Shown here one piece after another: positions 11,069 to 31,260 of a DNA stretch of 64,000 bases (position 1 is its first letter; each line of letters begins with the position of its first letter). The stretch is from Thermoplasmata archaeon. GTDB taxonomy: Archaea; Thermoplasmatota; Thermoplasmata; RBG-16-68-12; JAJISG01. The stretch lies in NCBI GenBank assembly GCA_046758325.1, contig JBHHZZ010000003.1, forward strand, positions 12,381 to 76,380, written 5' to 3'. Both the position numbers and the translations under genes were made by a program. The notes beneath the pieces were generated by a model. That model saw only the letters and a list, made by a program, of their open reading frames with translations. It was not told where the DNA came from and ran no database searches.

Positions 11069-12436
11069 CTAGAACTCTGTTACGCCCGTGAACCTGAAGT
11101 TTTCGATTTTCACAGGAGGTACGGTGGATGCTCCCACACCCAGCCAGCTAGAGTAGCGGTGGGGCTCTCTCTCTTTGCCTATCAGCGTGGCCTCTGCAAA
11201 GGCCTCCATCAGGCCCTGAGTGAACCTCAGGTTCTTGACGGCCCCTCTGATCTCCCCATTCTCTATGAGGAAAGTGCCATCCCTAGTCATGCCGGTTATC
11301 AGGGCCTTCGGGGCATCAATAGGGTTAGTGTAGTGGAACCTGGTGACGTAGATCCCCCGCTTTGTCTCCGCCACCATCTCATCTTCGCTCGAGTCCCCCG
11401 TCTCCAGGAAAGTGTTCATGGCTAGCGGACCAATCGGGTTCGGCGGTAGCAAGGCATGACCCGTTGTCTTCTTGCCCTCTCGCCCCGCTGTGTAGGAGTC
11501 GTAGACGACGCCCCTGGCAACTCCGCTCTCCAAGAGAAGGACCCTCTTCTTGGGTACCCCCTCCCCGTCGAAAGGCACGGGAACGCCCTCTGGTCTCGTC
11601 CCCTCGTCCCAGAGAGTGATGGACTCCCCCGTGACCTTCTGCCCGAGATTGCCACTCACGTAGGACCTCCCCTCCTGGTAGGCAATGGCTCCGAAGGTGA
11701 TAGAGGCTAGGGACTGGACCATGTCGGCGACAGCGTTGCTCTCCAAGACCACGGTGTACTCCCCCGGCTCGATGGCCTTGGCACCGATGGATCCCGCCGC
11801 CTTCTCCGCGGCCCTTTCTGCCATGCGTCGGTGATCAAGCTTCGAGATGTCCACCTTCAGATCCTCGCCCCAACCGTAGCCCTTCTCTCCGTTCGCTTCC
11901 TTGATGGCTGTCACCACCAGATGGCCCAGCGTCAAGCTGTTGTGCGCCCTGATTCCCAGGGAGTTGGACACCGTGATGGAACGCGTGGCCGCCTCCAGGG
12001 CCCCGAAGGCTTTTTCGACCCCCTGAGAGGAAACTATGGAGACGATGTCCTCCACCACCTTCGCCCTCTCCTCGGGCGTGGACCCGTCCGTCTTGGCAGA
12101 GAAGTTGGGGACATCCTCGCTCCCCTCATCTTCCGGGAGGGAGACGAATTCCTTGTTGGGCTTCTGGGCACGCGCCATCTTGCCCGCCCTCTCGATGGAT
12201 TCCTTTATGGAGGCCTCGTCGGTCCTGTTGGTCCTGACGATGCCTATCTGCTTGTCGTAGACCAGTCGGAGTATGAGAACAGTATCGGACGTGGCCACGT
12301 TCTGGTGGATGATGGAATTGGCGTACCTGGTGAGGGAGGTCTTGGTACTCAGGAGGATGGCTTCCGTCTGGTCGGCTGGGCTGAGGTCCAGAACCCTGTC
12401 GACTATGTCGAAGGCCTCTGACCTGGCTGGCGCCAT
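11069..12436 (-). CDS. pmbA: PmbA/TldE-family metalloprotease modulator (pair 1)
   Basis: TldD/PmbA family architecture without the HExxxH. Immediately downstream of, and abutting, the TldD gene. Confidence 0.75.
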   Translation of the reverse strand: MAPARSEAFDIVDRVLDLSPADQTEAILLSTKTSLTRYANSIIHQNVATSDTVLILRLVYDKQIGIVRTNRTDEASIKESIERAGKMARAQKPNKEFVSLPEDEGSEDVPNFSAKTDGSTPEERAKVVEDIVSIVSSQGVEKAFGALEAATRSITVSNSLGIRAHNSLTLGHLVVTAIKEANGEKGYGWGEDLKVDISKLDHRRMAERAAEKAAGSIGAKAIEPGEYTVVLESNAVADMVQSLASITFGAIAYQEGRSYVSGNLGQKVTGESITLWDEGTRPEGVPVPFDGEGVPKKRVLLLESGVARGVVYDSYTAGREGKKTTGHALLPPNPIGPLAMNTFLETGDSSEDEMVAETKRGIYVTRFHYTNPIDAPKALITGMTRDGTFLIENGEIRGAVKNLRFTQGLMEAFAEATLIGKEREPHRYSSWLGVGASTVPPVKIENFRFTGVTEF

Positions 12437-13876
12437 CTAGGCCACCCCCACCCGAACCCCTCTGAACCGAGCTGGGGAGGTGCCGTGGCCGACGCGGGCC
12501 ACCTGACCCGGCTCCCCCTTACCACAGTTGGGGACCCCCCATAGGTGCCAGCGGTCCTCGTCACAGACGGCGTCACAACCCCTCCAGAACTCGTAGGTGA
12601 TGCCCGTGTAGTTCGGGTACTTGATGAGTTCCCCGAGCTCACCGCCCACAATCTCCCAGGCCACCTCCGTCGCAAACTGAAAGTTCAGGCGCAGGTCGTC
12701 GATGGACCAGGACTTGTTCGTCTCCATATATATGCCTTCGTCGGTGTCCTCCACCAGCTCGTCGAGGTCCCAATCCCCCGGGAGGAGGCTGATGTTGGTC
12801 ATCCTGATGAGGGGTATCCTGCCCCAGCCGTCGGCCCGCATATTGCCACTGGTCTCGTGTCCGAACAACTCCGCGGTTTCCCGGGAGTTCTGGTAGCCCA
12901 CGAAGATTCCTTCTCTGACGAGGTCAACCCGCTTTGCGGGAACGCCCTCGTCGTCGTACCCGAAGGTACCCAGGCCGCCTTCCACCATGGAGTCGGCCAC
13001 GATGTTGACCTTTTCAGACCCGTACCTGAAGGAGTCCAGCTTGTCAGGCGTCAGGAAGGAGGTTCCAGCGTAGCTGGCTTCCATTCCCAGGACCCTGTCA
13101 AGCTCCGTCGGGTGGCCGCAGGACTCATGGACCTGCAATGCCAGCTGGTTCGTGCCGATGATGACGTCCCTCTTCCCTGATGGGCACTTCTTCGCGTCTA
13201 GCAGGGCAACGGCCTCCCGGGCCGTCCTCTCCGCATTCCCCACCAGATCCATGGACTCGATGAACTCCCACCCCGCTGTCCTGAAGTTTCCTCCGAAGGG
13301 GGCCGGATAGGACCTCTTGTGTACCTCGCCACTCCGCAGCGCCAGGACTTCTATGCCGGCTCCCGACTGCAGGATGTCCTGCTCGATGTAGGAGCCCTCA
13401 CTGGACGCAAAAGTCTTCCTCTCCCTGAAGGCCTGGAACTGAGCCTTTCGGACCTTTATGGCCTCGTCCTTACTCGGGGTTCTCTGGGCATCCATCAGCA
13501 GCTCCATCTTCTCCTCCAGAGGCACATCCCACGGATCCATCCGGAAGGCGGACCTGTAGCTGCCCTCCTTGGACCCTACCTCCGCGAGGCTTACCTCCTC
13601 CCTCCTCACCCGGGCGGAAGCCCTGGCGATTCGGACGGCCTCCTCGGCGACTCTCCTGATTTCCCCGTTCTCCATCCCCGACGAGGAGGAGAAACCCCAT
13701 GAGCCGTCTGCCAAGGCTCGGACGCCGAAGCCTCCGCTCACGTTCTCCGTCAAGCTCTCCACGTTGTCATTCTTGACGATGATGGCGCTCAGTCGTCTCT
13801 CAACCAGCCTTATGTCGACGTAGCTAGCCCCTGCCTTGAGGGCGGTTTCAATCGCCATGTCGCAGGTCTCCCTCAT
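12437..13876 (-). CDS. tldD: TldD metalloprotease (pair 1)
   Basis: Conserved HESCGHPTELDRVLG zinc-binding motif and GxC motifs. 479 aa. Confidence 0.85.
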   Translation of the reverse strand: MRETCDMAIETALKAGASYVDIRLVERRLSAIIVKNDNVESLTENVSGGFGVRALADGSWGFSSSSGMENGEIRRVAEEAVRIARASARVRREEVSLAEVGSKEGSYRSAFRMDPWDVPLEEKMELLMDAQRTPSKDEAIKVRKAQFQAFRERKTFASSEGSYIEQDILQSGAGIEVLALRSGEVHKRSYPAPFGGNFRTAGWEFIESMDLVGNAERTAREAVALLDAKKCPSGKRDVIIGTNQLALQVHESCGHPTELDRVLGMEASYAGTSFLTPDKLDSFRYGSEKVNIVADSMVEGGLGTFGYDDEGVPAKRVDLVREGIFVGYQNSRETAELFGHETSGNMRADGWGRIPLIRMTNISLLPGDWDLDELVEDTDEGIYMETNKSWSIDDLRLNFQFATEVAWEIVGGELGELIKYPNYTGITYEFWRGCDAVCDEDRWHLWGVPNCGKGEPGQVARVGHGTSPARFRGVRVGVA

Positions 13877-13926
13877 CAGAACCCTCCGATATTCTCCCTT
13901 AGCCGGGAGCCATGATAAACCCTTTC

Positions 13927-14895
13927 CTAGATGTGGACTTCTGTGCCAAAACCCGACTTCCGGGCTATCTCATAGGCCACGGATGCGGTCGCCGCGTCCT
14001 CGAAGGCCATGCCGACAGACCTGAACAGAGTGATGTCGTCCTTGCTCATCCTTCCCGTCTTCATGCCGGCTACCAGCTCCCCCAGCTCGGCATAGATGTC
14101 GTCGGGCGAGAAGGCGCCCCGGTCGATGGCTTCCCCGAGGTCACGGGCCTCGTTCAACACACCCTCCTTGGAGTCCACCACTACCCTCGACCTTCGGTAG
14201 GTCTCAGCATCGAGTTCGCGCACCACGCCCCCTCCTATGGAGTTGACGTGAACACCCGGCTCGAGCCACTCTCCCTGAAGTACCGGGCTCCGGGAGTTGG
14301 TGGCTGTGACCACCACGTCGCTCCCGCGAACGACCTCCTCAGCCCCGTCTGCCACTAGGGCCTCCACATCGAGCGTGTCCACGAGTTCCTTACAGAAGCT
14401 CCTGAGGTTCTCCCGATTTCTGCTGTACGCCTTGACCAGCTGAACGTCGCGGACAGTCCAGAGGCCAAGGATCTGGGTCCGAGCCTGGGTCCCTGTTCCT
14501 ATTATTCCCACGATCTGGGCATCCACTAGTGAGAGGGATCTTGCCGCCAGGGCGCTCGCAGCTCCCGTCCGCATGGCGGTTACGTACCTCCCATCCATCA
14601 AGCATAGGGGGTCACCACTTCCGCTGTCCAGTAGGAGGATTGCACCGGTTATGGAAGGAAGGCCTTTCTCGCGATTCCCGGGAAAATCGGAGACCACTTT
14701 GACCGCTAGAGACCTCATACCCCCGAGGTACGCTGCCATGACGAAGGTATTCCCCTCCTCGCCGATGGGCGTCATGACCCTCATTGGCATGGAGACGGTG
14801 CCCCGGGCGTGCTCTACGAAACCCCGCTCCACCGCGTCGATAACGGTGCGCATGTCCAGAAACTCCTCCAAGTCCCTCTGGCTTAGGACGAGCAT
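13927..14895 (-). CDS. Ornithine cyclodeaminase / mu-crystallin family protein (may be an archaeal alanine dehydrogenase-type enzyme)
   Basis: The OCD_Mu_crystallin fold runs through the whole sequence (MLVLSQRDLEEFLDMRTVIDAVERGF...). Rossmann motif GIIGTGTQA. Start chosen at Met35 of the long ORF. Confidence 0.75.
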   Translation of the reverse strand: MLVLSQRDLEEFLDMRTVIDAVERGFVEHARGTVSMPMRVMTPIGEEGNTFVMAAYLGGMRSLAVKVVSDFPGNREKGLPSITGAILLLDSGSGDPLCLMDGRYVTAMRTGAASALAARSLSLVDAQIVGIIGTGTQARTQILGLWTVRDVQLVKAYSRNRENLRSFCKELVDTLDVEALVADGAEEVVRGSDVVVTATNSRSPVLQGEWLEPGVHVNSIGGGVVRELDAETYRRSRVVVDSKEGVLNEARDLGEAIDRGAFSPDDIYAELGELVAGMKTGRMSKDDITLFRSVGMAFEDAATASVAYEIARKSGFGTEVHI

Positions 14896-14946
14896 GTATC
14901 CCCACGTATATTGGCGCCCCTCAAAAACGCTTGGCCGGCTGACGCA

Positions 14947-14955
14947 CTTATTTAA
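14947..14955 (+). promoter_or_regulatory. Putative TATA box (TTATTTAAG) upstream of mrpA
   Basis: An AT-rich octamer about 45 bp upstream of the GTG start of mrpA, in an otherwise GC-rich intergenic region. Confidence 0.3.
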
Positions 14956-15000
14956 GAGGCTCCGCGATTGTCCTGAAAAGTCCCCAGCAGGTAGCATGGA

Positions 15001-17277
15001 GTGGTGGCGGTGGAGCAGGGAGCCTGGCTGTTACTGGCTTTAGGACTACCCTTTCTGTCCGCGCTTCTCTCGCCCCTCCTTGAGAGGCTGAGGCCCAACC
15101 TGGCCGCGATTTTTGGATCAGCCGTCGGCGCAGTCTCCTTCCTCACTCTTCTCGCGGTTTGGACCGTGGGAGGAGCGGAGAGGGTAGCCTACCCCTGGAT
15201 TCCCTCCGCTGCCATCTCCTTCATCCTTCGGCTCGACGGATTGGCGTTCTTATTCGCCCTCCTCATAACGGGAATCGGATCCCTGATCCTCGCCTACTCC
15301 CACAGCTACATGGCTCAGGAGAAGGGGAAACCCCGTTTCTACGCCTACATGTCCCTCTTCATGGGCTCAATGCTCGGCCTGGTCCTGGCAGGCGACCTCA
15401 TCCTTCTGTTCCTCTTCTGGGAGCTTACTACCCTGAGCTCCTTCCTTCTCATAGGCTTTCGGAGGGAGGAGAGGCGGTCGGTCCTCGCAGCCCTCAAGGC
15501 CCTCCTGATAACCGGGACTGGGGGCCTGGTCCTTCTTCTGTCCTTTCTGATGATGAGGGCCGCCGTGGGTTCCTTTGACCTGGAAGTCGTGCTGCAATCC
15601 GGCGACGTCCTCAGATCCAGCGCCCTGTTCCCTCTCATCCTGATCCTCTTCCTGGTAGCGGTGGCCGCCAAGTCCGCCCAGTTCCCGCTGCACATCTGGC
15701 TCCCCGATGCAATGGTAGCTCCCACGCCGGTGAGCGCGTACCTCCACTCCGCCGCCATGGTGAAGGCTGGCATATTCCTCCTGGCGCGCTTCCTGCCAGG
15801 CCTGATTTCGGTGGAGTGGGAGATGGCGCTCATTCCCCTAGGGACGGCGACCATGATCATAGGGGCGCTCCAGGCAATCCGGTCTGTGGAACTCAAGAGG
15901 ATACTTGCGTACAGCACGATCAGTCAGCTGGGCCTTCTAGCCTCCGTCTTCGGAATGGCCACCCTAACAGGTCAGGAGGCAGGGCTGTTTCACCTGCTGA
16001 ATCACGCTCTCTTCAAGGCCTCCCTCTTCCTGGTGGCCGGGGCGATTACCCTAGCCACGGGCTTCACGAATATCCGAGAGCTGGGCGGGCTCCGCAGGAG
16101 GATGCCTGTCACGGCCATCGCCTGCGGCCTCGCCGCCTTCTCTATGGCTGGCATCCCTCCACTGGGTGGCTTCCTCAGCAAGGAAACTTACTACGAGGCC
16201 GCCCTCCAGAGCGGCTATCTCTGGGCTCCCATCCTGGCGGTCCTAGGAGGGGGCCTCACCTTCGCTTACAGCCTCTACTTCTTCACGAGGATATTCCTAG
16301 GGAAAGGAGGTGGAACCAAGTCCCAGGAGCCCCTTTCTCTCGCGATTCCAGCGCTGATTCTGGCAGCGTTAACCCTCGTCCTCGGTATCATGCCCACCTT
16401 GGCCTCGGGGCTCGTATCCGCCTCTACATCTCCAGAGAACATCTTCGCCCCGGGCCTTCTTCGGGGCCCCATCACCACGGCCCTAATGAGCCTCTCCTCT
16501 GCCGTCGTGGGAATTCTGATCCTCTGGAGGTACGAGGCTGTCGCCTCCTTCCTTGATAGGGTTGCCACCACGCTGGGACGGATAACCCCCGACGCCGTGT
16601 ACGAAGGCTTCATCGGAGCTGCCCGCCGTTCCTGTGCTACCTTCGGTCTCATGGTTCAGAACGGGTCCCTCAGGAGATATACAGCTGTCCTGATCCTCTT
16701 CGTGCTGGCCGCCCTCATGTGGCCCTTATCCCTACCGGTGCTGGAGATTCCCGCCGTAGAGGACACCAGCGGCATCGTCCTTGCCATCATTCTGTCGGCC
16801 ATGGTGGTCTTCTCCTCCCTGGCAGCAGGACTGAAGGACACCCTCCATGCCATCCTCAGCCTCTCGGGCATGGGCTTCCTCCTCGCCATGACCTTCATGC
16901 TCCTCAATGCCCCGGACCTGGCCATGACCCAGATCCTCGTGGAAATGGTCTTCCTGGTGATCTTTCTGATAGTACTCCACAAGATTCCTTTCAAGGCCAT
17001 CCGTCCATCGAGGCCGCGAGGCTCTGTGGACCTTCTCATGGGGATCTTCATGGCCCTGGGGGTCGCCTACCTGGTTGCCCTCTCCATCGCGGCCTTCTCT
17101 CAATCGGTGGCCACATACTACCTGGACCCCAGCCTTCTGGACTTGACAGGCGGGAGGAACGTCGTCAATGTCGTCGTCACCGACTTCAGGGCCTTCGACA
17201 CCCTCGGCGAGATCACCGTCATAGGCCTGGCGTCCTTGGCCGTGTACACCCTCCTCCGGAGGTGGAAGGCTGACTAG
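15001..17277 (+). CDS. mrpA: Mrp antiporter subunit A (MnhA/MrpA, NuoL-like, with fused MrpB-like C-terminal domain)
   Basis: 758 aa polytopic protein with NuoL/ND5 antiporter-like motifs (WLPDAMVAPTPVSAYLHSAAMVKAG). GTG start. First gene of a seven-gene, overlapping mrpA-G array. Confidence 0.85.
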   Translation: MVAVEQGAWLLLALGLPFLSALLSPLLERLRPNLAAIFGSAVGAVSFLTLLAVWTVGGAERVAYPWIPSAAISFILRLDGLAFLFALLITGIGSLILAYSHSYMAQEKGKPRFYAYMSLFMGSMLGLVLAGDLILLFLFWELTTLSSFLLIGFRREERRSVLAALKALLITGTGGLVLLLSFLMMRAAVGSFDLEVVLQSGDVLRSSALFPLILILFLVAVAAKSAQFPLHIWLPDAMVAPTPVSAYLHSAAMVKAGIFLLARFLPGLISVEWEMALIPLGTATMIIGALQAIRSVELKRILAYSTISQLGLLASVFGMATLTGQEAGLFHLLNHALFKASLFLVAGAITLATGFTNIRELGGLRRRMPVTAIACGLAAFSMAGIPPLGGFLSKETYYEAALQSGYLWAPILAVLGGGLTFAYSLYFFTRIFLGKGGGTKSQEPLSLAIPALILAALTLVLGIMPTLASGLVSASTSPENIFAPGLLRGPITTALMSLSSAVVGILILWRYEAVASFLDRVATTLGRITPDAVYEGFIGAARRSCATFGLMVQNGSLRRYTAVLILFVLAALMWPLSLPVLEIPAVEDTSGIVLAIILSAMVVFSSLAAGLKDTLHAILSLSGMGFLLAMTFMLLNAPDLAMTQILVEMVFLVIFLIVLHKIPFKAIRPSRPRGSVDLLMGIFMALGVAYLVALSIAAFSQSVATYYLDPSLLDLTGGRNVVNVVVTDFRAFDTLGEITVIGLASLAVYTLLRRWKAD

Positions 17278-17290
17278 CGCAGTTGCCCGG

Positions 17291-17695
17291 GTGATCACCA
17301 ACATCGTCCTCTACATCGGCATCCTCTTCTCCCTCACCTTGCTCGTGGCAGGGCACAACGAACCCGGCGGTGGCTTCGTGGCCGGAGCTATGACAGCTAG
17401 CGTCTTTGCGCTTCTCTACCTCGTATTCGGGAAGGACTACGTGGAATCCAGGTTCCAGACGGACTACAGGTCCATCACAGCCGCGGGGCTCCTCGTCACG
17501 ATTTTCTTCGCCCTGATGCCCATGGCCCTGGGGGAGCCGGTTCTTTCCAGCATTCTGTTCACGTTGGACGTACCCCTGGTAGGTCAGATTGAGCTCGGCT
17601 CCGCCGTGGGGTTTGACTTCGGGATCTACCTCGTCGTGGTTGGCTCCGTTCTGACCATCCTGAGAAGGAGCGCGGGGGGTGAAGAACCTGGTTAG
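17291..17695 (+). CDS. mrpB: Mrp antiporter subunit B
   Basis: 134 aa, four TM segments, MnhB-like (GHNEPGGGFVAGAM). Its position follows mrpA. Confidence 0.75.
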   Translation: MITNIVLYIGILFSLTLLVAGHNEPGGGFVAGAMTASVFALLYLVFGKDYVESRFQTDYRSITAAGLLVTIFFALMPMALGEPVLSSILFTLDVPLVGQIELGSAVGFDFGIYLVVVGSVLTILRRSAGGEEPG

Positions 17696-18017
17696 TTTCC
17701 TGGCCCTCGTCATCGGCCTCCTCTTCGGAATAGCCGTCTATGCCATACGTCACGGAAACGCCATCAGAATCGTGATTGGCCTAGGCATCCTCTCCAACGC
17801 CGTCAACCTCATGCTCATAGCGGTGGGGTTCAAAGGGGAGACTGCCCCCATCCTCGGGCTGGCTGGCTCCCCATCAGACCCCCTCGTCCAGGCCCTCATC
17901 CTCACCGCCATCGTGATCGGTTTCGGGGTCACTTCCTTCGCCCTCGTCCTGAGCTACGCCCTCATCAGGGAGGAGGGCAGCACCGAGGCCGACGACTTCA
18001 GGAGGCTCAAGGGATGA
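17679..18017 (+). CDS. mrpC: Mrp antiporter subunit C (NuoK-like)
   Basis: 112 aa, three TM segments, MnhC/NuoK-like. GTG start overlapping the end of mrpB. Confidence 0.75.
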   Translation: MKNLVSFLALVIGLLFGIAVYAIRHGNAIRIVIGLGILSNAVNLMLIAVGFKGETAPILGLAGSPSDPLVQALILTAIVIGFGVTSFALVLSYALIREEGSTEADDFRRLKG

Positions 18018-19516
18018 GCCTGCTCGTCGCACTGCCAGTGGTTCTGCCGCTGACCACAGCCGTCGTGCTGCTAGCCCTCTTCCATTGGCCCCGCGTGCAG
18101 AAGGGCATCGCGATAGGGTCCAATGTTCTTCAGCTCTCCCTCTCCTTCGCCCTCCTTGCGCAGGTCCAGAACAGGGGAATCCAGGTCCATCTCCTCTCTG
18201 GCTGGCCACCACCCTACGGGATAATCCTCGTGGCCGACCTGCTGAGTTCCACCCTCCTTACCGTAACGGCCGGCGTCTTCCTGGCCAGTCTTGTCTACAG
18301 CCTGGGATACATGCGAAAGGAGGTCCTCCGGTTCTCCTACCTCCCCCTCTTCTTCTTTCTCATCACGGGAGTGAGCGGTGCCTTCCTCACGGGGGACATC
18401 TTCAACCTCTTCGTCTTCTTCGAGGTCATGCTGCTCTCCACTTATGCGCTGGTGATCTCCTGGGATCCCGAGGGCCTCATCAGCCGGGCAGAGAAGCTGG
18501 AGGCCACCTTCAAATACCTGGTCCTCAACCTCATCGGAGCCTCCGTCATGCTCCTGGCCATCGGTACCCTCTACGGTACCACGGGGACCCTCAACATGGC
18601 GGATCTCTCGGTGAGGATACGGGACCTTCGGGAGAGCGGCGTGGTCCATCTCGACCTCATCGCCTTACTCTTCGTAGCTGTCTTCGGCCTCAAGGCGGCC
18701 GCCGCCCCCTTCCACTTCTGGCTTCCCGACGTGCACCCCTCGGCCCCCACCCCCGTGAGTGCCATCCTCAGTGGAATCCTCATCAAGGTGGGTGCCTACG
18801 GGCTGATCCGCCTGACCACCCTCCTGTTTGTCGGTCTTCAAGGTCTTACGGAGGTCATCCTCATCCTTGGCTTGGTGACCCTCCTCCTTGGTGGGGTGAT
18901 GGCCGTAGGTCAGCTAGACATCAAGAGGCTGCTGGCGTACAGCAGTATCAGTCAGATGGGTTTCCTGCTGTTAGGGGTAGGCCTCGCCACCGGTCAGGCC
19001 ATCGCCGCGGCCCTCTTCTTCCTCATCAATCATGCCATCATCAAGAGCATGCTTTTCCTGGCAGCGGGTGGGGTAATGCACATGACCCGCGAGAGGTCCA
19101 TGCTGCGTATGGGAGGCCTTGCCAGGTCATCCCCCTTCCTCGCCGTATCCTTCCTGATAGGCGTCATGGCCCTGGCTGGGCTCCCGCCCCTCAACGGCTT
19201 CATCAGCAAGCTGCTCATCTTTCAGACCCTCATCGACGCTGGCAGGCTGCCCTATGTCCTAATCGCCCTGATCGGTGCCTTCCTGAGCGTCCTGTACACC
19301 TTCAGGGCCTGGCTCAACATATTCTGGGGTGAGTCGAAGCATGTAGTGGACGGCAGTGCTAGCCTGACCCTCTTGCTCCCGGTAGGGTCCCTGGCAGTCC
19401 TCTGCCTCATCCTGGGCATCTTCCCAGAGCCCTTGGTCAACCTCGTGTCCCAGGCAGGAATACAGGCCGCCTCCCCCGACCTATATGTCGAGGCTGTACT
19501 GGGGGGTGCAGGGTGA
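18014..19516 (+). CDS. mrpD: Mrp antiporter subunit D (NuoN/NuoM-like)
   Basis: 500 aa with antiporter-like subunit motifs (WLPDVHPSAPTPVSAILSGILIKVGAYG). Overlaps mrpC by 4 nt. Confidence 0.85.
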   Translation: MSLLVALPVVLPLTTAVVLLALFHWPRVQKGIAIGSNVLQLSLSFALLAQVQNRGIQVHLLSGWPPPYGIILVADLLSSTLLTVTAGVFLASLVYSLGYMRKEVLRFSYLPLFFFLITGVSGAFLTGDIFNLFVFFEVMLLSTYALVISWDPEGLISRAEKLEATFKYLVLNLIGASVMLLAIGTLYGTTGTLNMADLSVRIRDLRESGVVHLDLIALLFVAVFGLKAAAAPFHFWLPDVHPSAPTPVSAILSGILIKVGAYGLIRLTTLLFVGLQGLTEVILILGLVTLLLGGVMAVGQLDIKRLLAYSSISQMGFLLLGVGLATGQAIAAALFFLINHAIIKSMLFLAAGGVMHMTRERSMLRMGGLARSSPFLAVSFLIGVMALAGLPPLNGFISKLLIFQTLIDAGRLPYVLIALIGAFLSVLYTFRAWLNIFWGESKHVVDGSASLTLLLPVGSLAVLCLILGIFPEPLVNLVSQAGIQAASPDLYVEAVLGGAG

Positions 19517-20004
19517 AGACTTACCCGTACGCCGTACTGGCCATGGCGATTACGTGGATGTTCCTGAAGGGGTCCATCACCATCCTGGCCTTTGTGGAGG
19601 GCCTGTTCTTCGCCCTCCTCACGGTCTTCACCACACGGGCAATCATCAAACCCGAGATCAGGCAGACCTTCCCCCGGGTCCTCAGACGGCTGCCCTCATA
19701 CCTTGCCTACTTCGGCTTCTTCGCGAAGAGCGTCATTCAAGGGAACCTGGATGTCTCATACAGAGCCCTCCACCCGAGGCTACCGGTGTACCCAGGCATC
19801 CTTGCGGTGAACATCGAGGGGAGGAGCGAGCTCGAGGTGGCCATGATGGCCAACACCATTACGCTCACCCCCGGGACACTGACCATGGACGTGGATATGG
19901 ACAAGAAGCTCATGTTCGTCCACACGATCAACGCCAGGGACCTAGAGCGCGTGAGACGGGACATAAAGGAGGTCGAGAGGTACGTCATGAGGGTGCTCAG
20001 ATGA
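19513..20004 (+). CDS. mrpE: Mrp antiporter subunit E
   Basis: 163 aa MnhE-like. Overlaps mrpD by 4 nt. Confidence 0.7.
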   Translation: MKTYPYAVLAMAITWMFLKGSITILAFVEGLFFALLTVFTTRAIIKPEIRQTFPRVLRRLPSYLAYFGFFAKSVIQGNLDVSYRALHPRLPVYPGILAVNIEGRSELEVAMMANTITLTPGTLTMDVDMDKKLMFVHTINARDLERVRRDIKEVERYVMRVLR

Positions 20005-20261
20005 GCTTCGCTTACGCGATGATCGCATTGGGGGGCATCATCCCCATCGTGCTGTACAGGTTCGTGAAGGGGCCGAGCATTCCCGACAGGGTCGTCGCCC
20101 TGGAGGCCATCGTGTCCATGGTGGTCGCCCTACTCGTCCTCAACTCCTATCTCCAGCGGTCATCCCTGTACATGGACGCCGCCCTCGTCCTGTCGATCTT
20201 CGGCTTCATTAGCACGGTGGCAATGGCCAAGTACCTGGAGAGGGGGAATGTGTTTGCTTGA
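20001..20261 (+). CDS. mrpF: Mrp antiporter subunit F
   Basis: 86 aa with three TM segments (MSFAYAMIALGGIIPIVLYRFVKGP), MnhF-like. The ATG at 20001 overlaps the mrpE stop by 4 nt. It is hidden inside a longer ORF in the track. Confidence 0.7.
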   Translation: MSFAYAMIALGGIIPIVLYRFVKGPSIPDRVVALEAIVSMVVALLVLNSYLQRSSLYMDAALVLSIFGFISTVAMAKYLERGNVFA

Positions 20262-20649
20262 GTGGCTCAGGGAACCCGTCGCCACAGCCCTACTGGTCGT
20301 AGGCGTCTTCTTCTACTTCAGCGGGGCCGTGGGCATTCTTCGACTTCCCGACGTGTACAACAGGATCCACGCGTCCACCAAGACCTCCACCATAGGTGTC
20401 GTGAGCATACTCCTCTCGGGCCTGGTCTTGCTGGGCATGGACCCGGTGAGCATCAAGGCCTTGGCCATCGTCCTCTTTCTGATGCTCACCTATCCCGTGG
20501 CGGGCCACCTCCTCGCCAGGGCCGCGTACAGAACGGGGGTCGTACTAACAGACAGGACCCTCCGTGATGAGTATAGGCATGTCCTTGACCTGGGGGAAGG
20601 TGAGGGCGTGGAGGAAGAGGCCGAGGTCCGAGACCGAGAACGCGTCTAG
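20248..20649 (+). CDS. mrpG: Mrp antiporter subunit G
   Basis: 133 aa MnhG-like (FFYFSGAVGILRLPDVYNRIHASTKTSTIG). Confidence 0.75.
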   Translation: MCLLEWLREPVATALLVVGVFFYFSGAVGILRLPDVYNRIHASTKTSTIGVVSILLSGLVLLGMDPVSIKALAIVLFLMLTYPVAGHLLARAAYRTGVVLTDRTLRDEYRHVLDLGEGEGVEEEAEVRDRERV

Positions 20650-21970: not shown

Positions 21971-22348
21971 ATGACGCAAGAACTCCACATCGTACTGCTT
22001 TCCAGCGAACCCTTTCGAGCGTATCCCGCCATTCAGCTAGCCTTGGGCGCGGCCGCGATGGGCACAAAGGCCAAGGTCTATTGCACGTCCGCTGGCCTGG
22101 AACTCGTGAAGAAGGGCGGGGCGGACGAGATCCAGATGCCCGGTTTCCCTCCCCTTGGCCAGCTGCTTAGGGATGCCCTGAGCTCCGGCGTAAAGGTATG
22201 CGCGTGTGCTCCTTCCCCTGAAATCCTCGAGGCCATGGGAATAACTGAGGATACTGTGGAGGAAGGCATAGAACTGGAGGACGTGGTTACCTTCCTGAGC
22301 GAAGCGCTGCCAGCCGCCAAGGAGGGTGGCATAGTCACGTTCATCTAG
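21971..22348 (+). CDS. DsrE/DsrF-like family sulfur-relay protein
   Basis: 125 aa with the N-terminal HIVLLSSEPFRAYPA...AMGTKAKVYCTSAGLEL pattern of DsrE/peroxiredoxin-like small proteins, and a conserved Cys (VCACAPS). Confidence 0.65.
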   Translation: MTQELHIVLLSSEPFRAYPAIQLALGAAAMGTKAKVYCTSAGLELVKKGGADEIQMPGFPPLGQLLRDALSSGVKVCACAPSPEILEAMGITEDTVEEGIELEDVVTFLSEALPAAKEGGIVTFI

Positions 22349-22356
22349 GAGGAATA

Positions 22357-22626
22357 ATGGCCTCCACAGAGGGAGCGGAGATGGACAGCCAGGAGTTCTC
22401 GGAGGATCCAGCTATCAGGCTGAACACCGTCGGCCTCATCTGTCCTTATCCCGCGTTGGAGACCCAGAAGGCCCTTGGACGGATGAAGAAAGGGCAGGTT
22501 CTAGAGATCCTCACCAACAACGAGCCCACCGCCAAGAAGTCCATTCCCCTTCTCTGCGACCAGGCCGGCTCGAAATACAAGATAATCGAGGAAGAGGATC
22601 GCTGGAGAATTCTCATCAGAAAATGA
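22357..22626 (+). CDS. tusA: TusA-like sulfurtransferase
   Basis: CPxP motif (GLICPYPALE) within a roughly 80 aa two-layer alpha/beta fold. The true start may be the Met at 22381. Confidence 0.75.
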   Translation: MASTEGAEMDSQEFSEDPAIRLNTVGLICPYPALETQKALGRMKKGQVLEILTNNEPTAKKSIPLLCDQAGSKYKIIEEEDRWRILIRK

Positions 22627-22639
22627 CCTGATGCCAGCC

Positions 22640-23281
22640 TCACATCCCGGATAGACCTAGGAGGTCTTCCACAGCTTCCACCCGTCTGGCAGTGGAGCTC
22701 ACTGCAACTTTGACCAGCTCTTCATACGCCGCGGATATCTGCCGATCGGGTCCCCAAACCACCCCATCCCCTTCACCTTCCCAGACGCAAAGCACATCAT
22801 AGTGGTTTATCGGGAAAGCCATGGTTAGTGCCTCGCTGATGCGCTGTCCGAGGTACTCCTTCAGGTCGTAGAGATGGATGGTAGGTTCGCCCACGGCTTC
22901 CTCGTCAGTGAAGCACAGAATGGCAGCGCCTTCCCCCGTCATCTCCTCCAGAATCTCCCTGGAGGCTTCCACAGTGTCCGCCAGCTCCCCTGGCAGCCGA
23001 ATGCTCAGGGCCACATCATGCCCAAAAGCCTGCTTGAGGCAGCCGCTCAACGTTCCCCTAAGCCGCTCGCGTAGCAGAAAGGGAGGCACGGATATCTTCA
23101 GGGCAGCGTGCTCCGAACTGACTACCTGTAGGGCGCTCCTCAAATCCTTCAGAGCTGAAAGGGCATCCCGCAACATCTTCACGGGTGGAAAGCGCGCGTA
23201 ATCCTCCCTGGAGACGTGGAGCAGAACGATGAGCTCTCTCCTCAACTCCTCGGCTGTTTCATCCTCCTGAATGGTTAGCAT
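22640..23281 (-). CDS. Hypothetical protein (213 aa)
   Basis: Clean GC3-rich ORF downstream of the DUF835 gene on the same strand. No motif recognised. Confidence 0.4.
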   Translation of the reverse strand: MLTIQEDETAEELRRELIVLLHVSREDYARFPPVKMLRDALSALKDLRSALQVVSSEHAALKISVPPFLLRERLRGTLSGCLKQAFGHDVALSIRLPGELADTVEASREILEEMTGEGAAILCFTDEEAVGEPTIHLYDLKEYLGQRISEALTMAFPINHYDVLCVWEGEGDGVVWGPDRQISAAYEELVKVAVSSTARRVEAVEDLLGLSGM

Positions 23282-23340
23282 CAGCCCCTATGCCCATCGC
23301 TAGCGTCTTGATAGATGTTTGGGATGTCCTTCCTAGTTTC

Positions 23341-23910
23341 TCATCCCTTGAGATATCGATCTATGAGCTGGACAAACTCTTCCACTCTTGCCTTGGATAC
23401 CAGCTTCTCCCCCTCCAGCACCTCGGCATTCCTCTCCAGGAGGGCAAGGTCCTGTTCCTCCAAAGCCTCTGGGTTTATGGGCACCAAGAGGAGGGCCTCG
23501 CTCTGCATGATGAAGTCGTTGAGGTGCTCGAGAAAGAGGAGGGTCTTTGAGAACTCGTTATGCAGGAGGAGGTACTCCAATCCATCGATAAGGACGACGC
23601 CTTGAGGATGTTCGACGAGGAAGTCGTAGACGATCTTGGTCAGGATGCTTAGGGCCTTCGGGTCCACCCGGTCCTTCCCGACGGAGGGCGTGAGCCACTT
23701 GAGCTGGATAGTATCGGGGATACCCCAGTAGCCCTTTGCGACCTCCGGGTGCTTTCTGGTGATGCACAGTCCTGTCCTTCCCTTGCCCCCCAGGCTGCAG
23801 AAGAGGTCGAAAGCCGCCTGGCCCTTCTTCTCTCTGACGAAGTAAGTCGTGCCGCTCCTGAGCTCTTCCAGCATGGCCTCCCCAGGTCCTGCGGACTCTC
23901 CAGAAAGCAC
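23341..23910 (-). CDS. DUF835-like (degenerate KaiC/RecA-like) archaeal protein
   Basis: The pattern TTYFVREKK...GLCITRKHP...LKWLT...VVLIDGLEYLLLHNEF...LFLEHLND resembles the archaeal DUF835 family, a RecA-like fold lacking a canonical Walker A. Confidence 0.5.
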   Translation of the reverse strand: MLSGESAGPGEAMLEELRSGTTYFVREKKGQAAFDLFCSLGGKGRTGLCITRKHPEVAKGYWGIPDTIQLKWLTPSVGKDRVDPKALSILTKIVYDFLVEHPQGVVLIDGLEYLLLHNEFSKTLLFLEHLNDFIMQSEALLLVPINPEALEEQDLALLERNAEVLEGEKLVSKARVEEFVQLIDRYLKG

Positions 23911-23958
23911 AAATTACTAAAGGCCACCGGAACAAAAATCACTTAGTCCAGTGAGGGC

Positions 23959-24432
23959 CTAAACTTCCTCCTTCACGGTGGCAAGCGAGCTGCTGGTAAG
24001 GGTCCTCTCCACACCTTTCATGGACCTGAGCTTATCCAGGACCAACCGCCCCACGTCCTCCAGGGTCCCGGTCCTCACCTTCAGGAGAATGTCCCAATCC
24101 CCCGTTATCAGATGGACCTCAAGGATCTCCGGGAACTTGGCCAGTTCGTTGGCCAGCCGTCTCTGGGAGACCTCTGGATTGGGCTGATAGCGGACGAACA
24201 CGAAGGTCGTCATCCCTTGACCCAGTCTGGAGTAGTCTTTCAGCACCGTGAACTTCCGTATGATGCCCTCCCTTCTCATCCTCTGGATTCGGTAGTTGAC
24301 GGTCGGCCGCGGCAGGCCTAGCTCCCGGGCGATGTGGGCCAGGCTCTTGCTGGAATCCTCAATCAATTTCTCCAGAATCCTCTCATCAGTACTGTCGAGC
24401 TGATACTTCATTGTCGAATGTTTATAGGACAT
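23959..24432 (-). CDS. Lrp/AsnC family transcriptional regulator
   Basis: N-terminal HTH (DERILEKLIEDSSKSLAHIARELGLPRPTVNYRIQRM) plus a C-terminal RAM domain. Confidence 0.85.
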   Translation of the reverse strand: MSYKHSTMKYQLDSTDERILEKLIEDSSKSLAHIARELGLPRPTVNYRIQRMRREGIIRKFTVLKDYSRLGQGMTTFVFVRYQPNPEVSQRRLANELAKFPEILEVHLITGDWDILLKVRTGTLEDVGRLVLDKLRSMKGVERTLTSSSLATVKEEV

Positions 24433-24657
24433 GGCAATACATTAAGGTTTTGATATAGGAGGTGTGAATTCGTTAATGAGTCACGGGGTTGAGGATGCAG
24501 GAAAGGTAGCACACCCGTTCCCATGCGGACTTCGGCCTGCTTCCGAGTTTGTTCTTCCCCTCTGAGGAGTCCCCCGGTCCCATCCCCATCATGGTCGCCG
24601 GCCCGGTCCGCAAAGGCCTTGTAGCTGCAGCCCCTAGCTTGGCGGAGGCGAGGTGGT

Positions 24658-25836
24658 ATGGAACCCGTGATGAAGCTGGCCTCCGGTCACAGAGAGAAGA
24701 TAGTGCAGTGGAGGAGGAGCCTGCACCAGATACCTGAGCTGGCCTACGAGGAGGTGAAGACGAGCGGCCTCATCGCCGATGTCCTGGAGGAGATGGGCCT
24801 AAGAGTGAAGGAGGGAGTTGGTGGAACAGGAGTGTTAGCCCTCATCAAGGGATCGAGACCTGGGAAGGTCGTGGCCCTGCGGGCTGACATGGATGCTTTG
24901 CCGCTGGACGAGAAGACAGGCCTTCCCTTCGCTTCGGTCCACAAAGGCAGGATGCACGCATGCGGTCACGATTCCCATATGGCCATGGTCCTGGGGGCCG
25001 CTCGGGTGCTGAAAGACTTGGAGTCGGAACTCAGCGGCCAGGTGAAGCTTATTTTCCAGCCTGCTGAGGAGCAGGGTCACACCGGTGGTGCAAAGCCTCT
25101 CATCGAGGCCGGTGCCCTGGAGAACCCGAGGGTGGACTACATCTTCGGCATGCACGTATGGTCTGACCTGGAGTCAGGGAAGATCGGCTACAACATGGGA
25201 GCCATGCTCGCCTCCACGGATACCTTCTACATAACCGTGAAAGGGAGGGGTGGCCATGGGGCGAAACCGCACGACGCCGTGGATCCCGTTGTGGCAGCCG
25301 CCCACCTGGTCGTGGCCCTGCAGACAGTCGCCTCCAGGGAGGTGGACCCGCTGGAGCCCTTCGTCCTCACGGTGGGCAAGTTTCAGTCGGGAACGGTCCA
25401 CAACATCATTCCTTCAGAGGCGTACCTGGAAGGTACCATTAGGACGGTTAAGGAAGGAACCAGGAAGAGCCTGAGGGAAAGGCTGGAGAGAATCGTCGCT
25501 GGGGTGACATCCTCCTTCGGGACCGACTATGAGCTGAGGATCGATGAGGGGTATCCGCCGACGGTCAACGATCCACAGGTTACGGGGAAAGCAGCGGAGA
25601 TCCTGCGAGACGCCCTCGGCGCGGATAGCCTCGTGGAAGTGCCACCGGTCATGGGAGGGGAGGACTTTTCCCGCTACCTTGAGAGGATACCAGGCACTTT
25701 CCTCGTCCTGGGCACCAGGAACGAGGCCAAGGGTCTGACTGCATCCATTCACAGCCCCCACTTCCAGGTGGACGAGGACGTACTACCCATGGGCTCTGCT
25801 GCCCTTGCGAAGCTGGCTCTCTCCTTCAGCGCCTGA
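24658..25836 (+). CDS. M20D family amidohydrolase (N-acyl-amino acid / hippurate hydrolase type)
   Basis: Metal ligand motifs HACGHDSH and ALRADMDALP. 392 aa. Confidence 0.8.
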   Translation: MEPVMKLASGHREKIVQWRRSLHQIPELAYEEVKTSGLIADVLEEMGLRVKEGVGGTGVLALIKGSRPGKVVALRADMDALPLDEKTGLPFASVHKGRMHACGHDSHMAMVLGAARVLKDLESELSGQVKLIFQPAEEQGHTGGAKPLIEAGALENPRVDYIFGMHVWSDLESGKIGYNMGAMLASTDTFYITVKGRGGHGAKPHDAVDPVVAAAHLVVALQTVASREVDPLEPFVLTVGKFQSGTVHNIIPSEAYLEGTIRTVKEGTRKSLRERLERIVAGVTSSFGTDYELRIDEGYPPTVNDPQVTGKAAEILRDALGADSLVEVPPVMGGEDFSRYLERIPGTFLVLGTRNEAKGLTASIHSPHFQVDEDVLPMGSAALAKLALSFSA

Positions 25837-28477: not shown

Positions 28478-29437
28478 TCAGTCGTCTTCCTCCGGTTCCT
28501 CCAACCTGGCTATCCTCCTGTAGCTTTGACGGAGCCTTCCGTATGACTTATCGGCATCGACCATTCTTCGATACGCATTGGAAAGATGGGTCTTCATCGT
28601 CTCCCAGTGGCCATCGAAGCCCTGGAAACGACGCTCCATCCTCTGTAGGCTCTCCTCGATATCCTCGGCTCGCTCTGCGATTTCCTGCGCCCTCACCGCC
28701 AAAGCCAGTATGTTGATGGAGGTGACTAGGGTGCTCGGAGAGACGAGGTTAACGCCCCGAGCCGCCGCATCCCTCATGAGATCCCCCTCTGCTTCTGTCA
28801 GGTACTGATACACCGCCTCCGCAGGGATGAAGCCCAGGGCGAAGGGGGCGCCGCCCTCCTCTGGCTTCACGTAGTCACCGGCAATCTTGTCCACGTGGCG
28901 CTGCACGTCCCTGGCGAACTCCTTGGCGCGTCGCCTCCTCTCCGCTTCGTCCTCAGTCTCCAGCATCCTCCGGTAGTTGTCCAAGGGAAACTTAGCGTCG
29001 ATGCACAGGATCCCCTCCGAGGTCTCGAGATGGGCGTCAGGAGTCCCGAAACCGGGCAGCTTCTGTCGGATGCCCACCTTCCCTGGAGGGAAGATGTCTT
29101 TGAGCAACTCTTCTAGCTGGAACTCGGCAAACTGGGCTCGACCTCTCTTGACCTCAAAGAGAGTCTGCAGACTCTTGGAGGAGCTGAGAATCTGCTGGGC
29201 GGTCGTCTTTATGGCTCCGAGATCCTTGTCCAGGCCAAGTTCCTTCACTGAGGTGGCGAAGGCACCTTTGAGGACCTCCGAGCTCTGGGCAAGGCTGGCA
29301 CGAAGGGCCGCTTCGAGGCTTGCGGTGTCATAGGCTGTCGGACCTCCGGAGAGGCGGAGGGCAATCCAGAGGAGAAGGAGAATGGATATCACTACGCCGA
29401 TAATTATCAAGAGATCAAACAGCTCTACCATCCTCAT
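28478..29437 (-). CDS. rmuC: RmuC family DNA recombination protein
   Basis: N-terminal TM anchor, a coiled-coil region, and a conserved RmuC nuclease-like core (ILCIDAKFPLDNYRRM...GFIPAEAVY...VNLVSPSTL). Confidence 0.75.
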   Translation of the reverse strand: MRMVELFDLLIIIGVVISILLLLWIALRLSGGPTAYDTASLEAALRASLAQSSEVLKGAFATSVKELGLDKDLGAIKTTAQQILSSSKSLQTLFEVKRGRAQFAEFQLEELLKDIFPPGKVGIRQKLPGFGTPDAHLETSEGILCIDAKFPLDNYRRMLETEDEAERRRRAKEFARDVQRHVDKIAGDYVKPEEGGAPFALGFIPAEAVYQYLTEAEGDLMRDAAARGVNLVSPSTLVTSINILALAVRAQEIAERAEDIEESLQRMERRFQGFDGHWETMKTHLSNAYRRMVDADKSYGRLRQSYRRIARLEEPEEDD

Positions 29438-29795
29438 CCTCCAAGGACGCTGTTTTTAGCGATCGAGCATGAAGGCGCTATGGTATGGATAAGCTTTTCC
29501 TGAGAATGGGAGCAAATGAGTAAGAACGTCTGGGCTGTTCTGATACTGTCTCTGACCGAACGAAGCAGTGAGCAGCAGCCCCCAGCCGTCCATCCCCTAC
29601 TGCAGCTGTCCCCGGCTCACGCCCAGCCTCGATGCGTTCCTCGAGCTTGTCTTTGCAATGTACTGTTGACACCCCACCGTTCCTCCTCCCCCATGGCATG
29701 TGGGAACCTCTCGAGCTCGTTCAGAGGATGGATGGAGACCCCATCGATCGGAACCATCGGGAGAAGTGATATACCAACGAGTCGATTCTCGATCC

Positions 29796-30149
29796 ATGAT
29801 ATCGAAGATCATGGATGTGGCAGTGGTTGTGTCAGATGCAAAGAAAGCCGCCGACTGGTACCGCGAGAATCTGGGTTTCGAGGTTGGAGGGGACCCTGAG
29901 GGCCACTGGGTAGTCGTCTATCCTCCGGGAGGGTCGGTGGGAACCCACCTGCACCTCTGCGGAGACTTCTATCCTGGTGAACCTGGGAACACGGGAATAG
30001 GATTGGTCACCGGAAATCTGGAGAAGACCTTCAAGACGCTTCGGGAGAGGGGTGTGGAGTTCACGGTCGATCCGAAGAAGGAGGATTGGGGCAACTACGC
30101 CATGTTCAAGGACATGGACGGGAACGAGTTTTGGCTCGTTGAGGAGTAG
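29796..30149 (+). CDS. VOC / glyoxalase family protein
   Basis: MISKIMDVAVVVSDAKKAADWYRENLGFEV has glyoxalase-fold beta-alpha-beta-beta-beta modules. The ATG at 29796 was chosen over the longer N-terminus. Confidence 0.7.
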   Translation: MISKIMDVAVVVSDAKKAADWYRENLGFEVGGDPEGHWVVVYPPGGSVGTHLHLCGDFYPGEPGNTGIGLVTGNLEKTFKTLRERGVEFTVDPKKEDWGNYAMFKDMDGNEFWLVEE

Positions 30150-30207
30150 GCCTGGCTGGTGCAGATAGAGGCTGCGCCACTTTCCGGGCCGATGTCATGG
30201 AGATGAT

Positions 30208-31260
30208 GTGGTGGAGGAGGTCAAAGTCGCCCTGATAGGGTTTGGAAACGTCGGCCGCGGGTTTTGCGAACTCCTGCGTCTGAAGGAAGAGACCCTTCTG
30301 AAAAGATACGACCTTCGAGTCAGAATCTTGGCAGTCTGCGATTTGAAGGTCGGCTCCGTGTACTCAGAGGATGGCCTCGACCCTTCGCTTCTCCTCAGTC
30401 TAGTCGCTAGAGGGAAATGTCTGGAGTCCTACCCTGCAGGCACCAAGGGCCTCAACGCCTTGGAGACAATCAAGCTTCCCGTGGACATCGTGGTTGAGAC
30501 TACCTGGACCAACCTAGAGACGGGGGAGCCAGGTCTCACCCATGTAAGGGAAGCTCTGAAGGCGGGGAGGGACGTCGTGACCACGAACAAGGGCCCCATT
30601 GCCCTAGCGTATGGGGAGCTTCGTGAGTTGGCGGTCAACATGGGTAGGCAGCTGCGCTTCAAGGGGACGGTGATGAGCGGGACCCCGAGTTTCGACTTGC
30701 CCTTGGAGACTCTGCCCGGCACAGAGGTCAACTCGATTGAGGGCATCCTCAACGGGACATGCAACTTCATCCTCGCTGAGATGACACATGGAAGGTCGTA
30801 TGAGGATGCTTTGCAGGAGGCGCAGGCCCGAGGTTATGCGGAGGCCGAACCTAGCGCTGATGTGGAGGGGTGGGATGCTGCGGCCAAGGCCGTCATCCTG
30901 GGCAACGTCCTGATGGATGGCCATCTGAGGGTCCACGACATTCCCAGGAAGGGCATCGTGGGCCTACGTCTGGAGGACCTGACGGAGGCAGGACGGCGAG
31001 GCTGCACAGTGAAGCTGATCAGCAGGGTCTGGATGGAAGGGGAGGAGGTCAAGGCTTCCGTGGCGCCGGAGGATGTGCCCAAGGACAGCTTATTGGGTAA
31101 CGTGAGTGGATCGCTGAACGGCCTCGTGCTCGACACGGACACCCTGGGCAAGGTAGCCATCGTCGGTCCGGGTGCAGGGGGAAGGGAGACAGGCCAGGCG
31201 GTCCTGTCCGATTTGGTGAGGGTGGCCCTTGACAGAAGGCCGCGTCGTCTGAGAGCCTGA
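30208..31260 (+). CDS. hom: Homoserine dehydrogenase
   Basis: N-terminal Rossmann motif VALIGFGNVGRG and a homoserine-dehydrogenase catalytic domain (NGTCNFIL...). 350 aa. Confidence 0.8.
   Translation: MVEEVKVALIGFGNVGRGFCELLRLKEETLLKRYDLRVRILAVCDLKVGSVYSEDGLDPSLLLSLVARGKCLESYPAGTKGLNALETIKLPVDIVVETTWTNLETGEPGLTHVREALKAGRDVVTTNKGPIALAYGELRELAVNMGRQLRFKGTVMSGTPSFDLPLETLPGTEVNSIEGILNGTCNFILAEMTHGRSYEDALQEAQARGYAEAEPSADVEGWDAAAKAVILGNVLMDGHLRVHDIPRKGIVGLRLEDLTEAGRRGCTVKLISRVWMEGEEVKASVAPEDVPKDSLLGNVSGSLNGLVLDTDTLGKVAIVGPGAGGRETGQAVLSDLVRVALDRRPRRLRA

Follow-up and report, generated by a model that had tools for sequence, protein, structure and literature searches.

Three genes lie in series on the minus strand of a 64,000-nt stretch of a Thermoplasmata archaeon genome (GCA_046758325.1, contig JBHHZZ010000003.1; this whole stretch is called the window, and its own numbering is used throughout): a gene for an Lrp/AsnC regulator (23959-24432), a DUF835 gene (23341-23910) and a gene (22640-23281) for a 213-aa protein that we call X213. 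A first-pass annotation, made from the sequence alone, had described them as a three-gene unit in which DUF835 is paired with a dedicated regulator and an unknown partner. We tentatively favor a composite model, with a likelihood somewhat short of one half, in which the three are real adjacent genes, probably transcribed separately, and DUF835 and X213 are the likelier functional pair; a three-gene operon is not demonstrated. DUF835 and X213 make the more plausible pair because both are novelties confined to one lineage and were never seen apart. The competing readings that we weigh below overlap in part, and the likelihoods attached to them are not meant to sum to one.

The open reading frame (ORF) coordinates agreed with the earlier description of a minus-strand trio with gaps of 48 bp (Lrp to DUF835) and 59 bp (DUF835 to X213) between the mechanically called frames. 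Loci around homologues of X213 and DUF835 (numbered L001 and so on) were taken from NCBI metagenome-assembled genomes (MAGs), Logan assemblies and JGI metagenomes, and the window proteins were mapped onto them by tblastn. All three ORFs are real genes and not chance ORFs, because orthologues with 38-83% protein identity keep the same order in these related genomes. For two of the three genes a start downstream of the mechanical one is probable. The mechanical DUF835 ORF has 189 aa and a GTG start; its true start is probably the ATG at 23874, for a protein of 177 aa, since the orthologues have 176-177 aa and a GGGGAGG Shine-Dalgarno sequence stands at 23883-23877, and the spacer behind Lrp therefore measures 84 nt and not 48. 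The mechanical Lrp ORF has 157 aa, and here the true start is probably the ATG at 24411 (150 aa, the length at which the Lrp orthologues were mostly called), because in the orthologues of L001 and L008 a frame opened at the upstream ATG is closed by a stop codon straight away, and a conserved TATA-like box stands only ~10 nt before 24432.

The DUF835 assignment passed a hidden Markov model (HMM) search: the match to PF05763 reaches 108.7 bits, where the gathering cutoff is 33.1, and spans model positions 8-134 of 136. All 24 orthologue clusters of the window protein carry PF05763. The protein has a RecA-like alpha/beta core of the KaiC/ArlH branch, with comparison values of 14.9 against PH0284, 14.4 and 14.3 against FlaH/ArlH, 13.8 against KaiC and 13.0 against SSO2452. 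Unlike ArlH/FlaH, PH0284 and SSO2452, with which it shares 8-13% sequence identity, it lacks Walker A: the motif [AG]xxxxGK[ST] is absent from its sequence, and the loop between strand 1 and helix 1, the expected place of the P-loop, consists only of EKKG. Fold comparison and motif search thus both agree with the initial description of a degenerate RecA/KaiC-like protein. A Walker-B-like strand is retained (VVLID97G), and E15, R40, H42, D97, E100, H105, N106, E116, N119, D120, R148 and N149 are the invariant polar residues. Judged by these sequence features the protein is a predicted KaiC/ArlH-like RecA-fold pseudo-ATPase, and because the P-loop has been lost, neither canonical ATP binding nor hydrolysis is predicted. 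It is not an ArlH/FlaH protein (14.7 bits with the NCBIfam ArlH model, against a cutoff of 215 bits), and there were no archaellum genes among the neighboring genes examined around the locus.

DUF835 had been put down as functionally unassigned, but archaeal signal transduction already has a place for it: Galperin et al. 2018 (PMC5847659, with reference to Makarova et al. 2017) list it under the name iKaiC as an output domain, a KaiC-like domain that has been inactivated. They report it from Methanomicrobia and Thermoplasmata, in response regulators of the types REC-DUF835 and REC-PAS-PAS-DUF835, and assign it to a proposed KaiC-based archaeal signaling network (PMC5847659). With iKaiC/DUF835 the window protein shares the Pfam match, the RecA/KaiC-like fold, the absence of a P-loop and its source in Thermoplasmata, but compared with the response regulators it stands alone (177 aa), without REC, PAS or a membrane sensor region. 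Of the 359 DUF835 proteins that a profile search returned, 120 were listed; nearly all of these were likewise stand-alone (162-216 aa), and every source name given for them was Thermoplasmata. A more remote DUF835, at L030 (38% identity over the aligned region), forms the C-terminal domain of a longer protein (293 aa) whose N-terminal region is hydrophobic and apparently transmembrane, and its gene lies in an unrelated context.

Close homologues of the window DUF835 protein form 24 clusters of 63-100% identity, after which identity drops to 49% or less, and in a neighbor-joining tree the Lrp-linked DUF835 group was monophyletic on a long stem. Stand-alone out-group DUF835 genes from other Thermoplasmata (40-47% identity to the window protein) were found in an Orc1/Cdc6 neighborhood, on the same strand, in all six contexts sampled (L033:3593-5552, L034:3762-5555, L035:3814-5588, L036:3857-5537, L037:3790-5519 and L016:1-1652). 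In five of the six (L033-L037, with Orc1/Cdc6 called from AAA_16/AAA_22, Cdc6_lid and WHD_Cdc6) DUF835 lies directly downstream of Orc1/Cdc6, with gaps of 17-115 nt, and in L016 a 4HBT thioesterase gene intervenes. A DHH/DHHA1 (RecJ/GAN-like) gene converges on DUF835 in every one of the six, either immediately or with one small ORF between them; genes for ribosomal protein S15 and fibrillarin come next in L033-L037, and a few kb beyond, in L033, L034 and L036, lies a Metallophos (no Pfam match in L036) and SMC_N/AAA_23 gene pair that we read as Mre11 and Rad50. In two loci (L033:5572-5967 and L036:5687-5971) the Cdc6-linked DUF835 is followed by a small ORF that has a weak, sub-threshold OB-fold (tRNA_anti-codon) match. 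No Lrp or X213 homologue was found at the Cdc6-type loci, and neither Cdc6 nor a second DUF835 in the window. Both locus types occur in three assemblies (GCA_964347345.1, GCA_964348155.1 and GCA_012974945.1), the last of which yielded two different X213 proteins and so is apparently a mixed metagenome assembly. Given its own clade and the assemblies with both loci, the window DUF835, which follows Lrp instead of Orc1/Cdc6, looks like a lineage-specific paralogue of the widespread Cdc6-linked DUF835 of Thermoplasmata.

The second novelty, X213, is an acidic protein without a family, as had been noted at the outset: its isoelectric point (pI) is 4.70, with 37 D+E against 21 K+R, and it had no Pfam or NCBIfam family match. 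Searching 14 members against Pfam at E values up to 10 gave only noise and nothing relevant, and a profile run against PDB sequences matched only designed helical proteins. A word-indexed search of 5.8 billion proteins recovered 14 X213 clusters, all of 210-219 aa, of which the only one with a source name is a hypothetical protein of a Thermoplasmata archaeon. When 1.84 billion representatives were searched exhaustively with an HMM profile, seven clusters were recovered, all from one Thermoplasmata lineage; an extra profile match (P0046) was a repetitive 367-aa artefact and was rejected. These searches show X213 to be a genuinely lineage-restricted family.

Despite the shallow alignment, AlphaFold2 gave X213 a confident model (predicted local distance difference test, pLDDT, 90.8; predicted template modeling score, pTM, 0.87) of two tandem beta-alpha-beta-beta-alpha-beta (ferredoxin-like) units. 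The closest fold is that of SP0830 from Streptococcus pneumoniae (PDB 2HIY; Foldseek probability 0.99, TM-scores 0.52 and 0.59), which we take to be a DUF1697 protein. X213 has the two-domain alpha+beta fold of SP0830-like/DUF1697 proteins but no match to them at the sequence level, by Pfam or by the PDB profile search; identity to SP0830 is only 8-12%, and SP0830 is bacterial and itself uncharacterized, whereas X213 is archaeal. Literature searches on DUF1697, SP0830 and 2HIY returned nothing functional. Neither a sequence signature nor a strong structural match to ACT or tandem-ACT proteins was found, and no internal repeat was detectable (hhalign of the N- against the C-terminal half, probability 0.3). 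Across 21 members the invariant polar residues are R14, H22, R73, R75, S93, R95, E99, D126, E127 and D162, a set of Arg, His and Ser with acidic residues that we would read as a ligand or metal site more than as a purely structural surface.

Other roles for the protein were considered and set aside. A part in redox chemistry or sulfur relay was considered because two cysteines are conserved and the TusA and DsrE genes are adjacent, and was rejected: C123 and C165 change to Ala, Ser or Val in members, and the absence of TusA and DsrE at many syntenic loci also weighs against it. A defense-island or viral origin was rejected as well, since DUF835 and X213 had no PADLOC or PHROGs matches; matches of Lrp to Csa3 and CARF models cover the shared helix-turn-helix (HTH) region only. 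In the window the DsrE-like and TusA-like sulfur-carrier gene pair (21971-22626, plus strand) is convergent with X213. It is present only in some syntenic genomes, and elsewhere it is absent or replaced by an unannotated gene of 115-121 aa on the X213 strand.

The order Lrp, DUF835, X213 recurs in ~13 distinct genomes, named uncultured Methanomassiliicoccales archaeon or Thermoplasmata archaeon, and wherever the contig is long enough (~13 genomes) X213 follows DUF835 on the same strand, so the two downstream genes are indeed syntenic elsewhere. Conserved order and strand are the part of the proposed three-gene unit that stands. The case for a unit is weakened by the collinear surroundings, by insertions, by a promoter-like box before each gene and by one locus (L012) without Lrp. 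The collinear order runs from an MBL/RMMBL hydrolase through Amidohydro_2, in some genomes M29, and M20 to Lrp (divergent from M20), DUF835 and X213, and on through TusA and DsrE where present (convergent with X213) to GT2 and the Mrp antiporter; because this entire neighborhood is collinear within one narrow lineage, synteny does not single out the trio as a unit.

Insertions were found at both junctions. Between Lrp and DUF835, one species carries the gene of a 189-aa Ras/Roc small GTPase (L001, 4696-5265; TIGR00231, 50 bits; L007, L019 and L022 too), and another species carries a Methyltransf_24 gene (L021:3371-4138). Between DUF835 and X213 we found an opposite-strand cupredoxin gene (L013), an opposite-strand SnoaL/ketosteroid-isomerase-like gene (L012), a zinc-ribbon ORF (L009) and a 6-7 kb block of small ORFs (L032:7810-13805) that leaves X213 7.2 kb downstream. 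None of the small ORFs of this block has a family match. At its end lie genes for an HTH protein and a tyrosine (phage-type) integrase, and the whole block probably represents an integrated element. The insertion sites in L012, L013 and L032 are free of tRNA genes. Where an opposite-strand gene parts X213 from DUF835, X213 must be expressed independently.

The intergenic sequences favor three putative promoters with optional co-transcription of DUF835 and X213. An alignment of the M20-Lrp intergenic region from eight genomes showed conserved boxes upstream of Lrp (24438-24476, minus strand), whose two main blocks are TTAACGAATTC at 24476-24466 and AAAACCTTAATGTA at 24451-24438, the latter resembling a B recognition element (BRE) with a TATA box. 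The first lies ~15 nt upstream of the BRE/TATA-like element, has a partly palindromic CGAATTCG core in relatives and is a candidate autoregulatory operator of Lrp; the second is a possible Lrp promoter, from which a near-leaderless transcript would begin ahead of the start at 24411.

In the Lrp-DUF835 spacer, which is constant at 79-84 nt in genomes without an insertion, the element CTAAGTGATTTTTGTTCCGGTGGCCTTTAGTAAT (23913-23946, minus strand) was aligned in seven genomes. Related genomes read CTGATT(T/C)T..CCCGGTGG.CTTTAATA here, also written CTGATTTTTG.CCCGGTGG.CTTTAATA, and the remaining spacer has diverged. The element contains a T5 run at 23938-23934 and a TATA-like box at 23922-23913, ~44 nt before the DUF835 ATG. 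A T-run is the usual archaeal intrinsic termination signal, and from general knowledge of archaeal signals CTAAGTGATTTTTGTTCCGGTGGCCTTTAGTAAT would join a terminator T-run to a TATA-like promoter of DUF835, implying a leader of 18-20 nt with the GGGGAGG Shine-Dalgarno sequence; the same block could also hold a regulator binding site. Upstream of X213, ~30 nt before its ATG, lies the box CCCAAACATCTATCAAG (23307-23323, minus strand), a weak, pattern-level candidate for X213's own promoter. A similar AAAG..CT(A/T)TC box is present 30-40 nt upstream of X213 in eight genomes, even where an opposite-strand gene parts X213 from DUF835. The boxes before DUF835 and X213 make separate promoters likely, and since the 59-nt DUF835-X213 spacer of the window has no T-run, read-through and co-transcription are possible there. 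Window-wide counts of putative promoter words were too sparse for a general consensus, and no Rfam family or tRNA gene was found in the whole 64-kb window.

The regulator was correctly identified as Lrp/AsnC, with Pfam matches above cutoffs to AsnC_trans_reg (64.5 bits, cutoff 25, E = 8.5e-18), HTH_24 (49.1 bits, E = 4e-13) and HTH_AsnC-type (45.6 bits, cutoff 27, E = 6e-12), and its architecture is complete, an N-terminal AsnC-type winged HTH followed by a C-terminal RAM/AsnC_trans_reg domain. Proteins of this family are often named feast/famine regulators. Like archaeal LysM, LrpA and other Lrp/AsnC proteins it combines HTH and RAM and is divergent from a gene of amino-acid or peptide metabolism, but unlike the LysM/LrpA-type regulators it falls below the equivalog cutoff of every named NCBIfam regulator, the best being LysM (NF040947) at 82.5 against 180 bits. 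The divergent gene (24658-25836, plus strand) encodes an M20 carboxypeptidase, a CpsA-like amidohydrolase (NCBIfam carboxypeptidase CpsA, 496.7 bits against a cutoff of 500; TIGR01891 amidohydrolase, 406 bits), and the divergent pair is retained in every genome that has Lrp at the locus. At L012, Lrp, M20 and M29 are all absent from the locus, and DUF835 and X213 are retained, a joint loss that connects Lrp with the peptidase genes and not with DUF835. That Lrp is a regulator dedicated to its downstream neighbors is therefore not evident, and the CpsA-type M20 carboxypeptidase is most likely its regulatory partner. In one MAG (L002:4716-5093, and L010) Lrp is truncated, called at 125 aa with only residues 8-111 aligning, either through an assembly frameshift or as a recent pseudogene; on the L003 contig, from a different assembly with the same X213 protein, Lrp is intact.

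Several observations weigh against our composite model. The constant co-occurrence of DUF835 and X213 could be plain inherited synteny, the Mrp genes being equally constant, and opposite-strand genes part the two in several genomes. Measured against the window proteins, identity is lowest for X213 (38-60%), with values of 63-83% for DUF835, 62-77% for Lrp and 66-81% for M20; X213 thus evolves about twice as fast as DUF835, which gives no hint of a tightly co-evolving interface. The ligand or enzyme reading of X213 would draw only on its conserved residues and on a modeled fold with one uncharacterized solved relative. Lastly, the constant spacer and conserved motif behind Lrp could mean that Lrp regulates DUF835. 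This last point belongs to a reading that we think unlikely, a true three-gene module in which a metabolite-sensing Lrp controls DUF835 and X213, with all three in one pathway. The common order and strand in ~13 genomes speak for it, as do the element by the TATA-like box, which could include an operator, and a loosely similar TAAC.GA.TT element upstream of Lrp itself. It has to contend, however, with the unrelated GTPase (L001) and methyltransferase (L021) genes between Lrp and DUF835, with L012, where DUF835 and X213 do without Lrp, with the CpsA-like peptidase as an obvious alternative target of Lrp, with DUF835 loci outside the lineage that have neither Lrp nor X213, and with a collinearity that reaches many unrelated flanking genes.

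We hold it somewhat more probable, though still doubtful, that the three genes have no functional relationship at all, and that their adjacency is the inherited order of independent genes in a young lineage. The collinear neighborhood, the repeated insertions at both junctions, the promoter-like box before each gene and the very different evolutionary rates of the three would all follow from this. Nonetheless a DUF835 duplicate and an orphan family, both lineage-specific novelties, stand side by side and never apart in the sampled data, and a stand-alone DUF835 without input or output domain of its own needs a partner. Such a partner might instead be a winged-helix DNA-binding protein, with stand-alone DUF835 an accessory subunit of Orc1/Cdc6 widely and of Lrp here, and X213 an addition, a reading that we regard as improbable. 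It would account for the same-strand Orc1/Cdc6 neighborhood in all six out-group contexts, directly after Orc1/Cdc6 in five, and for the DUF835 of the window lineage lying ~80 nt after a winged-helix Lrp. This evidence is positional, however; in close relatives the Cdc6-linked copies are preceded by a conserved promoter-like box and a Shine-Dalgarno sequence of their own, and winged-helix genes are so common in archaea that two such neighbors could be a coincidence. Slightly less probable again is an elaboration in which DUF835 partners Orc1/Cdc6 or Lrp and X213 has newly evolved as a ligand sensor, a subunit through which a metabolite signal would reach Lrp-DUF835; if true, a dead KaiC-like protein would be modulating both transcription factors and replication initiators in a way not described before.

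Under the composite model that we prefer, Lrp would sense an amino acid through its RAM domain and would control itself together with peptide and amino-acid catabolism, the target being the CpsA-type M20 gene. DUF835 would have no enzymatic activity and would serve as an adaptor or protein-interaction module, the role already proposed for KaiC domains that have been inactivated in archaeal signaling. X213, having arisen or diverged past recognition in the same lineage as the window DUF835 clade, would be a ligand-binding or weakly enzymatic protein, and DUF835, which as a stand-alone protein has neither input nor output of its own, would obtain one or the other from it. Nothing here is evidence for a novel mechanism: the parts are of known kinds, Lrp and a stand-alone iKaiC/DUF835, with a small orphan family beside them. 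The wider surroundings hold, at 11069-20649, two TldD/PmbA-type metallopeptidase genes, an ornithine cyclodeaminase gene and a multi-gene Mrp-type antiporter cluster, and on the opposite side, at 28478-31260, RmuC and homoserine dehydrogenase genes; the gene content of the region fits a Thermoplasmata archaeon that uses peptides and amino acids.

For the window itself the result is modest, one more stand-alone DUF835/iKaiC beside a routine Lrp and a lineage-only orphan. X213 does establish a new, if small, sequence family, for which there is a confident model and a well-defined set of invariant residues, and the locus offers a natural comparison of two DUF835 paralogues in one genome. A better lead than the window trio lies outside the window, in the Orc1/Cdc6-DUF835-RecJ/GAN arrangement of Thermoplasmata; the literature searched gave nothing relevant on a DUF835-Cdc6 association or a Cdc6-KaiC link. 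If the association with Cdc6 is general, stand-alone DUF835 proteins would for the first time have a concrete functional setting, that of DNA replication.

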